Assembly (NCBI GenBank): GCA_030248215.1
Contig: JASANG010002365.1
Span: forward strand, 248,001-312,000
Length of the DNA: 64,000 bases
Origin: Enoplolaimus lenunculus
Lineage: Eukaryota
Reading direction: 5' to 3'
A model generated the notes under the pieces. That model did no database searches, was not told the DNA's origin, and saw only the letters and a list, made by a program, of their open reading frames with translations. How positions within the stretch are numbered: position 1 is the stretch's first letter; each line of letters opens with the position of its first letter. Below, piece by piece: positions 6,301 through 9,300 of this stretch. Made by a program: the position numbers and the translations under genes.

Positions 6301-9300
6301 GTTATAGTCTTCAGCTAGGAAAGTATCTCAAGTACCTACTTTAAGTTTGTTACGTTTCCGTTCAAAACTGATTTATCGCTATATTTCAGGTGGAGTTCCT
6401 AAAATGGTAGCACTACTACAGAAAGGCAATCCGAAATTTCTTGCTGTTGTCACCGACTGTTTACACTTGCTTGCTTCTCAGCATCAAGATACTAAGGTGA
6501 GTAATGTTTTCTGTTAGGCTTAAGGTGAGTGACCATAGTCTCATGCTGCCAGGGTGCAACCGGAATTACAATTTACCGGAACCGGAACCGGAACCGGAAT
6601 TTGAAAATTTTACCGGAACCGGAACCGGAAAGTGAAAAATGCATATCACCAAAAATTTCATTTTAATCTTATTTTTTGCTCTATGATTTGTGAAATAACC
6701 TTAGTCGAACATAGGTATTTATTTTATTTGTTGTATTTTAGATTTTCATCATAGACTGAAGTGAAATCCACCATCAATGGCTTATATTCGGAGTACAAGT
6801 GGCTTTCAAAAAAGATTCTTATTAAATTAGCAAAGTTAAGAAAACGGCCAAATTATAATACCGGAATTTTTAAATCCGGTAAAAATTTACCGGAACCGGA
6901 AGGTGAAAAAATGCCGGAACCGGAACCGGAATTCCGGTTGCACCCTGCATGCTGCCTATATAACAGGTTTTGTTTACAACATTTTGCTGTCTTCTTAAAT
7001 TCGGTTCCCATTTTTAGCTACGAGAACGTTGCTGTAGAATTCGAATATAAATGGATCACTGAATTTATTGTAACTAGTGAAAAATGAAATAACAATAATC
7101 ACAATGTTGACGATAAGATTAGATTGTAATCTGAAGCTGGTGTTTAAATCATTAACGCGAGGGAAGGTTAGTTTTGAAATACGTTTTTAACAGTGCTCAA
7201 AACACAAAAAATGTGCTATAATTATGCTTGATATGTTGACAGACAAAAATAGCGTCGTGTGGAGGCGATGCCGAACTAATTCGTATTATGAGCTCATCAA
7301 GTTATGAAAAACTACAATGGACAACTTCAAGACTAATTAAAGTACTCAGCGTTTGCCCAGCTAACAAAGCTAACATCATTGAAGCAGGTACAGAACTCAC
7401 TCGGTTGGATGAGTAAACATTTTGTTTCCATCAAACAGTGCTGGATTGCAGGAATACGGTGTATGTATAATTTGCGTTAGTATTTTACTTTGACAAATGA
7501 ATCTTTAGAATAAAATTAATGATAAGTAATTAGCCAATAACCATATTTTGGTTTTTACCGCCATAACGCTGGTACCACACAAACTTATGAAACGTGTGTT
7601 GGTGATTTCTTCAAACTAACACAATTGTTAATAGGTGGTATGCAAGCTCTAGCGTTACATATTCGTGGACCCAGCGAGCGTGTGGCATTAAATTGTTTAT
7701 GGGCGCTGCGAAACTTGTCAGATGCGGCAACTCGAGAAGAAAATATCGAAGTTTTAATTGAAGACACAGTGGCATTAATGAACTCACCTAATTCAACCGT
7801 GGTGTCATGTTGTGCCGGAATTTTATCAAACTTAACGTGCAATAATCAACGAAATAAGGTAACGCGTGCAGTCAGACGGGAGAACGGGGAGGAACAGCGG
7901 TTTCACCGTACGAAAATTCTTGACAGCAGAAATCTGTAGTAAAAACGTGGTGAACGCGTGAGTGTTCATCAGAAGCTTTGACTAATTTTAGTGTTGTGGA
8001 AGCAAAGCGTTCGTCGACAAGATCAATGTATTTATCAGCATTAAACGAGCGGTACAATGTACTGTTATGCAGCACATTAGGTTTAACGGAGGCAGTTAAT
8101 CAAATAAGAGGTGTTAATGTAATACGATGGCTTTTCTTTAGGCACTTGTTTGTCATGTTGGTGGCATACCTCAATTATTGTCAGTTCTTTCAACATTTCG
8201 TGAGCAGAATCGAGAAGATATTACAGAGCCGGCGGCCTGTGCATTACGTCACATTACCTCTCGTTATCCGGAGGCTCAAATGGCACAAAACGCTGTTCGA
8301 TTACACAATGGATTGCCGGTTGTGGTGTCGATGTTAAATGCTAATGCACAGTGGCCGTTGGTTAAGGTACGAGTTTAGTTTGATGCATGTAATGCGAAAT
8401 AATTGTCCTATGGTTTATGGCGTAGAGTACATGCAGGCTTTGGACTAAACTTTTTGCTTAGGCTTAGGCTCTCTTCTAAACTTATCCGTACGTAGAGCAA
8501 TCGAGGCATAGTTTTAGGCTTAGGAATTCATGTAGCACCCTGCTGTGTCTATAAGAGTGACATTGGCTATATATTTTTGCACAAAGTAAGTTATTTGCCC
8601 TGTTTTGATTTGTAGGGCGTTTTCTGTAACCGTATATTTTAGTACTAATAAGTTTGAGGTATGTACTTATTTATGGGAAGAGTTAAAAAATATTACAAAC
8701 TAACATTGGATACGTATTTTGTTAAATTTTTAATTCATTGTTTAGAAGTTCTCAGCATTTCAGGCTGTAATCGGCGTTATTCGTAATTTGGCGTCATGTC
8801 CGTCAAACAAAGAGCCGCTGCGTGAATTAAAAGTTATTCAGCTGATATCTCAAATATTAACTAAAAGCTTTAACGATGTACAACAGGTAACACACTGAAA
8901 GTTCTGCTTTGGTGTTTTGCAATTGTGGTTGTCAAGCATAGGCTAATGTCTGGTTCTTCAAGAAATTTTTTCAATCAAAGTCTTATTTGATTTCGTGATT
9001 TATTCGGACACGCAACAAATTAACAATCACAGTCGTTTTTCTTTGCAGACCGGCGTTCGACAACAGGTGGGTTTTATCACGTCATATGTTTATATAAAAC
9101 ATCAGACGTGATAAAACCCACGTTTGTCGAACGCCGCGCAAAGCACAATCATCATTTTAGGCAGATCTAGACGATGGTAGTGACTTCGTTTCTCAAAACG
9201 CTTATTTCGCACATTATGGTTTTGGATCTGTTCATAATTTGCATTGCATAAGAACTTCAGTTTGTAGTTTTTATTTTTCTTTGTATTTTGCAGGCAGGAG

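Follow-up and report, generated by a model that had tools for sequence, protein, structure and literature searches.

A candidate β-catenin microexon within an RNA hairpin of predicted pri-miRNA-like geometry

How would a coding microexon be spliced if most of it, together with its donor site, were folded into one arm of a strong RNA hairpin, and what might such a hairpin be? The question is raised by a β-catenin/armadillo gene in the 64-kb stretch of DNA analysed here (the window, whose positions are used throughout), where an 18-nt candidate exon falls within a long inverted repeat (Table 1). A first-pass annotation of the window had proposed a structure-gated alternative microexon, lying in a hairpin of ~100 nt with bulges at both of its splice junctions.

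Table 1. Positions of the features of the β-catenin locus discussed in the text
Feature	Position in window	Strand	Basis or remark
β-catenin/armadillo gene	4096..11469	+	14-exon model including the candidate microexon; canonical AG/GT sites
Upstream exon	8764..8886	+	ARM10 helices; ends DVQQ
7-nt direct repeat	9023..9029 (left copy; other copy at 9145–9151)	+	Possible target-site duplication
Pyrimidine tract and AG acceptor	9036..9048	+	PWM 9.3, above 11/13 real acceptors (leave-one-out)
Full inverted repeat, 103 nt	9041..9143	+	RNAfold and repeat search; robust core 9051–9136 (86 nt)
Candidate in-frame microexon, 18 nt, TGVRQQ	9049..9066	+	AG before, GT after; 13/18 nt in lower stem
Donor hexamer	9067..9072	+	PWM 7.7, above 10/12 real donors (leave-one-out); coincides with predicted 5′ Drosha cut
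Predicted pre-miRNA, 57 nt, 2-nt 3′ overhang	9067..9123	+	5p 9067–9088, 3p 9102–9123; −33.9 kcal/mol alone
Downstream intron if microexon used	9067..9293	+	Hairpin at first base, 170-nt 3′ tail
Intronic arm pairing with microexon, 13 perfect pairs	9124..9136	+	Pair probability 0.97–0.98 in all folding contexts
Downstream exon	9294..9440	+	AGDAG…PLLVQ

The host gene and its candidate microexon

Judged by its predicted protein, the host gene is a divergent β-catenin. The model, which begins at 4096 so that 5′ exons upstream of this position lie outside it, encodes 743 aa without a stop, ends in WYDTDL, matches Arm domains in Pfam and is ~51–55% identical to animal β-catenins. In quick trees, it clusters with Soboliphyme baturini P0346 and with P0223 at SH-aLRT values of 99 (18 rows) and 97 (16 rows), all three being long branches, and a preliminary 32-row tree pairs it with P0223 (support 90). 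A close ortholog was not found in the exon, cluster-representative and profile searches. Exon 5181–5423 gave no match among 140 candidates, while exon 8145–8366 gave 144 matches, of which 120 were listed, those with a name being all vertebrate (61–64%), and a further 222 among cluster representatives, none above 68%; the profile search added Soboliphyme, at no more than ~48%. Counted on both strands of the window, the nematode telomere repeat TTAGGC occurs as a hexamer 53 times, versus 14 times for TTAGGG. Neighbouring coding pieces comprise an Oxidored-like segment at 15902–16363 (−), an ion channel at 26234–28743 (+) with Ion_trans_2 matched twice, an LLGL domain at 60718–60975 (−), and a 704-codon frame without a Pfam match at 52766–54877 (−).

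Placed between the exons 8764–8886 and 9294–9440, the segment 9049–9066 would add TGVRQQ in frame, and it has the sequence properties expected of a microexon: a length of at most 27 nt, flanking AG and GT, a preserved frame and no stop codon. Its splice sites were scored with PWMs built from the 13 acceptors and 12 donors of the host gene itself. Among the 18 in-frame candidates that the 5,158 intronic nt of this gene contain, it scores best, and by summed score it comes second of 483 in the window, both strands included; moreover, no other candidate in the host introns or on either strand of the window attains both of its scores (9.3 and 7.7). Of 300 Markov-simulated intron sets, 9 attained its summed score and 4 attained both of its scores. 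The chance of a candidate as good as this one in 5,158 intronic bases is 1–4%, and above-median candidates arise at ~7e-5 per nt, that is, 0.03 per 407-nt intron. The score thresholds were chosen post hoc, after the candidate had been seen.

Another above-median candidate (scores 7.5 and 7.2), a 15-nt in-frame AG…GT segment at 9497–9511 (+), is present one intron further on. Its peptide would fall within ARM11, so that we take it for a probable pseudo-exon, and it indicates that pseudo-microexons do occur in the host gene.

The first-pass annotation had assigned the peptide to the flexible insert of ARM repeat 10, an assignment that holds: the insertion point is the loop aligned with Xenopus residue S552, which, according to excerpts of PMC5766502, sits in the open loop of that repeat. 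Loops at this point measure 9–38 aa in 32 diverse relatives passing a motif filter. Another 118 relatives yielded 113 motif-matched loops, all of 14–29 aa; many of these proteins are lepidopteran and so not independent. The host loop would be 18 aa long with the microexon and 12 aa without it. When BLAST scores were compared for 120 proteins, the inclusion form did better in 74 and the skipping form in 11, with 35 ties. The two nearest relatives, however, argue against the exon: their loops are 15 aa long, midway between 12 and 18, they have an Ala straight after the VQQ equivalent, as in the skipped form, and they score slightly higher for the skipped form (633 against 630 bits in one, 418 against 416 in the other). 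We regard 9049–9066 as a credible microexon candidate, which is probably used at some level.

Other uses of the same sites were rejected. Taking 9067 as an extended donor of the exon starting at 8764, or the acceptor at 9049 with the downstream intron retained, runs into a stop codon in either case (the open frames end at 8898 and 9111, respectively), and recursive splicing was rejected because the AG at 9065–9066 has no preceding pyrimidine tract. At their donors, the upstream exon and the microexon share an identical stretch of 9 nt (8880–8888 and 9060–9068; QQ codons followed by GT), and the microexon may have been derived from a short duplication of the end of the upstream exon.

The hairpin, its splice junctions and its origin

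In sequence, arms and coordinates, the inverted repeat is as the first-pass annotation described it, and the RNAfold check proposed there returned a strong hairpin: the segment 9030–9155 has a folding energy of −63.8 kcal/mol (z −12.76), which none of 200 shuffles equalled (0/200), and the element ranks second in stability among the 110-nt windows of the 64 kb. Its stems are formed by 9041–9046/9138–9143, 9051–9063/9124–9136, 9067–9083/9105–9121 and 9086–9091/9097–9102. The claimed length of ~100 nt is present in the sequence, but only in part in the fold, because the outer 6-bp stem depends on context. Its probability is 0.88 and 0.80 in local folds of 210–300 nt and drops to 0.01 and 0.08 in folds of the complete intron; the robust element is thus 9051–9136. 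The 43 pairs of the hairpin are all Watson–Crick, with no G·U, and the antisense strand folds as strongly as the sense strand (−66.2 kcal/mol); neither feature hints at selection acting on the RNA.

The bulges reported at both splice junctions were found, although they carry less weight than was given to them. Two of the three differences between the arms sit opposite splice junctions, forming loops that adjoin these. Nevertheless, when an 18-nt exon is slid along the 5′ arm, both of its ends meet unpaired bases in 5 of 32 placements (~16%), which makes the coincidence modest and weak as evidence; the minimum-energy fold contains a pair between A9065 and U9123, so that the 'CAG' loop is only partly open, and the third internal loop, at 9084–9085, lies away from any splice junction. 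The accompanying claim that the donor GT itself is paired agrees with the folds: the hexamer 9067–9072 lies inside a perfect 17-bp helix and is predicted to be 0% unpaired in all four folding contexts. As U1 must read this hexamer, the hairpin looks like a mask over the microexon and its donor rather than a structure that presents them. Of the earlier proposal, what stands is a credible exon that is predicted to be masked, whereas the bulges leave the donor unexposed, and there is no specific support for regulation through a helicase, through ADAR or through a dsRNA-binding protein.

A real microexon gated by structure alone, in which one of these three factors would loosen the arm and no small RNA would be made, is possible but doubtful. 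Such a gate would share the splice-score evidence for the exon (9.3 and 7.7) and would give a role to the two arm differences opposite the junctions. A9065 lies in a CAG codon at position −2 of the donor, and A9047 and A9049 lie in a 4×1 loop; excerpts of published work report that exon–intron duplexes of ~28 bp aid selective editing at the GluA2 Q/R site (PMC5654063) and that a 5′-splice-site hairpin changed splicing in miR-1017 minigenes (PMC10853799). The gate is nonetheless at odds with the low rarity of the junction coincidence (5/32) and with a donor hexamer that remains paired. Moreover, A9065 is either A–U paired, as in the minimum-energy fold, or open, rather than opposite a C, and the 25-nt purely intronic upper stem and the asymmetry of the duplex ends described below would be left unexplained.

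As to the origin of the hairpin, multiple dispersed copies were looked for, and no second copy was found in the 64-kb window. The flanking 7-nt direct repeat stands 11 nt from the left arm and 1 nt from the right arm and hence is not flush with the arm ends; a target-site duplication flush with terminal inverted repeats was thus not found at this element. In a background of 2,766 flank pairs, 68, 118 or 186 have a stretch of at least 7 nt in common, according to how long a flank is compared (2.5–6.7%). According to excerpts of PMC10710096, template switching can build perfect stems in one step.

Two near-identical metagenome loci matching the inner arms (L001 2001–2057 and L002 1797–1853) were rejected as chance: they have another spacer and unlike flanks, and represent a 12+12-nt pattern in gene-dense DNA unrelated to the window.

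Several other folds and repeats were observed in the window. The downstream intron carries a weaker hairpin with G·U pairs at 9160–9232 (+; z −2.7, 4 of 200 shuffles as stable), and the last β-catenin intron a small one at 10942–10989. A hairpin of 46 pairs, including 6 G·U, at 36681–36790 has no other copy in the window and starts 120 nt past a 977-codon open frame (33629–36559, +) without a Pfam match, while nested inverted and direct repeats at 46479–46724 form stems of ~43 pairs and, likewise, have no copy elsewhere in the window. A CCGGAA-rich, MITE-like family with inverted ends is found in introns and downstream DNA (5543–5846, 6532–6947 and 12671–12741), and an apparently exact tandem duplication of ~450 nt was noticed by eye at ~14545–15455.

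An origin as a young neutral foldback (a template-switch palindrome, a small insertion or, possibly, a MITE remnant), with the AG…GT segment being a chance pseudo-exon or an exon silenced without cost, strikes us as no less doubtful than the structural gate, and no more so. Silencing would be costless since the loop tolerates 12 residues, and a protein lacking the exon aligns collinearly with its nearest relatives. The perfect Watson–Crick blocks without sense-strand G·U, the equal folding of both strands, the possible one-step origin by template switching (excerpts of PMC10710096) and the flanking direct repeat, at a background of 2.5–6.7%, are all consistent with it, as are the further long hairpins and repeat families in the window. 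It is opposed by the lack of a second copy in 64 kb and by the offset of the direct repeat from the arms (11 nt left, 1 nt right). In addition, that an above-median pseudo-microexon should fall within a ~50-nt arm, in the sole intron that interrupts the length-variable loop, would be an improbable coincidence, even if a scan of this kind picks out such cases.

Predicted pri-miRNA geometry and the proposed mechanism

A pre-miRNA competing with splicing had been listed in the first-pass annotation as a side alternative, and it turned out to provide the best geometric fit, with a precursor that is predicted only. Following the junction definition of PMC9976908, the 5′-strand stem measures 41 nt on the sense strand (9051–9091) and 47 nt on the antisense strand. 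The C. elegans Microprocessor measures 15–17 bp plus 24–26 bp, and other animals ~13/22, with C. briggsae being the only named species to share the C. elegans rule (PMC9976908). The 41 nt correspond to ~16 plus ~25, and both rulers predict a cut at 9066–9068, with the donor GT starting at 9067; the ~13/22 ruler would place the predicted cut at 9064. The resulting pre-miRNA would contain two 22-nt strands (9067–9088 and 9102–9123) with a 2-nt offset at each end. The 5′ end of the 5p strand is stable (−8.5 kcal/mol) and that of the 3p strand weak (+0.7 kcal/mol), so the predicted 3p strand starts, with a U, at the weaker duplex end. The three internal loops would fit equally well as the basal junction, the loop at the Drosha cut site and the 5′ end of the guide.

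UG and CNNC motifs are absent from the hairpin, and no base at its mGHG and midBMW positions is left unpaired; UGU agrees with the 9064 register and is otherwise off by 1 nt. Rfam returned nine weak generic miRNA matches, none of which reached the gathering score (best 30.1 bits vs a threshold of 74), and three arm motifs were not found in open-licence main texts; supplementary miRNA tables could hold the sequence. The host CDS and 3′ UTR contain no 7-mer seed site for any of the four candidate strands, and self-targeting by the predicted miRNA was rejected. To our knowledge, any 40-bp hairpin looks like a Drosha substrate.

An ordinary intronic miRNA, Drosha-cropped from the 407-nt intron while the microexon is never spliced, is improbable. 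All three internal loops stand at positions expected from miRNA biogenesis, young miRNAs are enriched in sense-strand introns, and the paired donor would suppress a pseudo-exon, but coincidence would have to account for the strong acceptor and donor, for the frame and for the position in the loop alike, and no known miRNA family matches.

The reading that we tentatively prefer, with less than even confidence, is that a splice-site-overlapping pri-miRNA masks a likely real, probably mostly skipped microexon, with the predicted Drosha cut falling on the donor GT. In this model, a young hairpin, born of inverted duplication or template switching, would fold and block U1 at 9067, making skipping the default. 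The Microprocessor, placing its cut ~16 nt above the basal loop and ~25 nt below the apex, would free 9067–9123, of which the 3p strand would be loaded. If U1 bound before the 3′ arm was transcribed, the exon would be included and TGVRQQ added to the protein. The intron excised after inclusion would start with the same hairpin, and trimming of the kind known for 3′-tailed mirtrons would be possible; indeed, the fold of 9067–9293 has the layout of a 3′-tailed mirtron, provided that the candidate donor is used. Splicing of the microexon would thereby generate the same 5′ end (9067) as the predicted Drosha cut.

A bolder extension of this model, in which the same 57-nt pre-miRNA would be made by two routes, namely by Drosha cropping if the exon is skipped and by splicing plus 3′ trimming if it is included, with the microexon serving as the ruler of the lower stem and coupling the ARM10-loop isoform to the route, appears to us improbable. 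What counts against a splicing switch, in the preferred reading too, is that, as reported in excerpts of PMC6097652, Drosha knockdown did not change exon inclusion at human splice-site-overlapping (SO) miRNAs.

Relation to known systems

If the preferred reading is true, the locus would be a compact natural case of the spliceosome and Drosha cutting the same bond, and would offer a direct test both of the competition between U1 and the Microprocessor and of the interconversion of a canonical miRNA and a tailed mirtron. It would also provide β-catenin isoforms that differ by splicing in the regulatory ARM10 loop, from what is probably an early-branching nematode, and would test whether the 16/25 ruler of Caenorhabditis predates that genus. 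If it is false, the locus is merely one young intronic palindrome.

Each of the systems that it resembles shares a part of this arrangement. The C. elegans microexons regulated by PRP-40/RBM-25 (10.64898/2026.09.14.751627; PMC8378409) are likewise at most 27 nt long and frame-preserving, with strong sites; in the preprint text (10.64898/2026.09.14.751627), the terms catenin, hmp-2, hairpin and secondary structure have 0 occurrences. Among the matches listed in open-licence text for microexons combined with β-catenin/nematode or with mirtron/pri-miRNA, there was no matching case.

The exon/ECS editing duplex of the GluA2 Q/R site (excerpts of PMC5654063) is similar in that an exon pairs with the downstream intron and a CAG codon lies in the duplex, and the exon–intron duplex here has the length of an ADAR substrate (~20 bp or more). 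Unlike at GluA2, however, the codon does not form a clear A·C mismatch, and the stem has no G·U pairs. In eIF4H (excerpts of PMC4006729), an in-frame, Drosha-bound alternative exon, exon 5, also lies within a Microprocessor-like hairpin. There, the 60-nt exon itself is pre-miRNA-like and Drosha promotes its inclusion, whereas here the 18-nt exon would form the basal stem and the predicted precursor would be intronic.

The miR-1017 mirtron of Drosophila, which is 3′-tailed (excerpts of PMC10853799), has, as would the downstream intron here, a hairpin at the first base of the intron followed by a 3′ tail; in that case, the exosome removes the tail and the hairpin affects splicing of the host (PMC10853799). 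The difference lies in the 13-bp lower stem, which here reaches into the exon, giving a Drosha-type substrate that a pure mirtron would not need.

In its working, the locus would be like the SO-miRNAs (excerpts of PMC3794580 and PMC6097652), in which a pri-miRNA-like hairpin overlaps splice sites of its host and the spliceosome is set against the Microprocessor. In the 17 human hairpins described there, the site contained is a 3′ site in 11 and a 5′ site in 6. This would set the present locus apart from the SO-miRNAs: the whole coding microexon would make up the lower stem, and the predicted cut would coincide with the donor. Among the matches listed by keyword searches of open-licence text, there was no case of such an arrangement. 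If real, it would be a variant of the known SO-miRNA-like systems, represented so far by one sequence.
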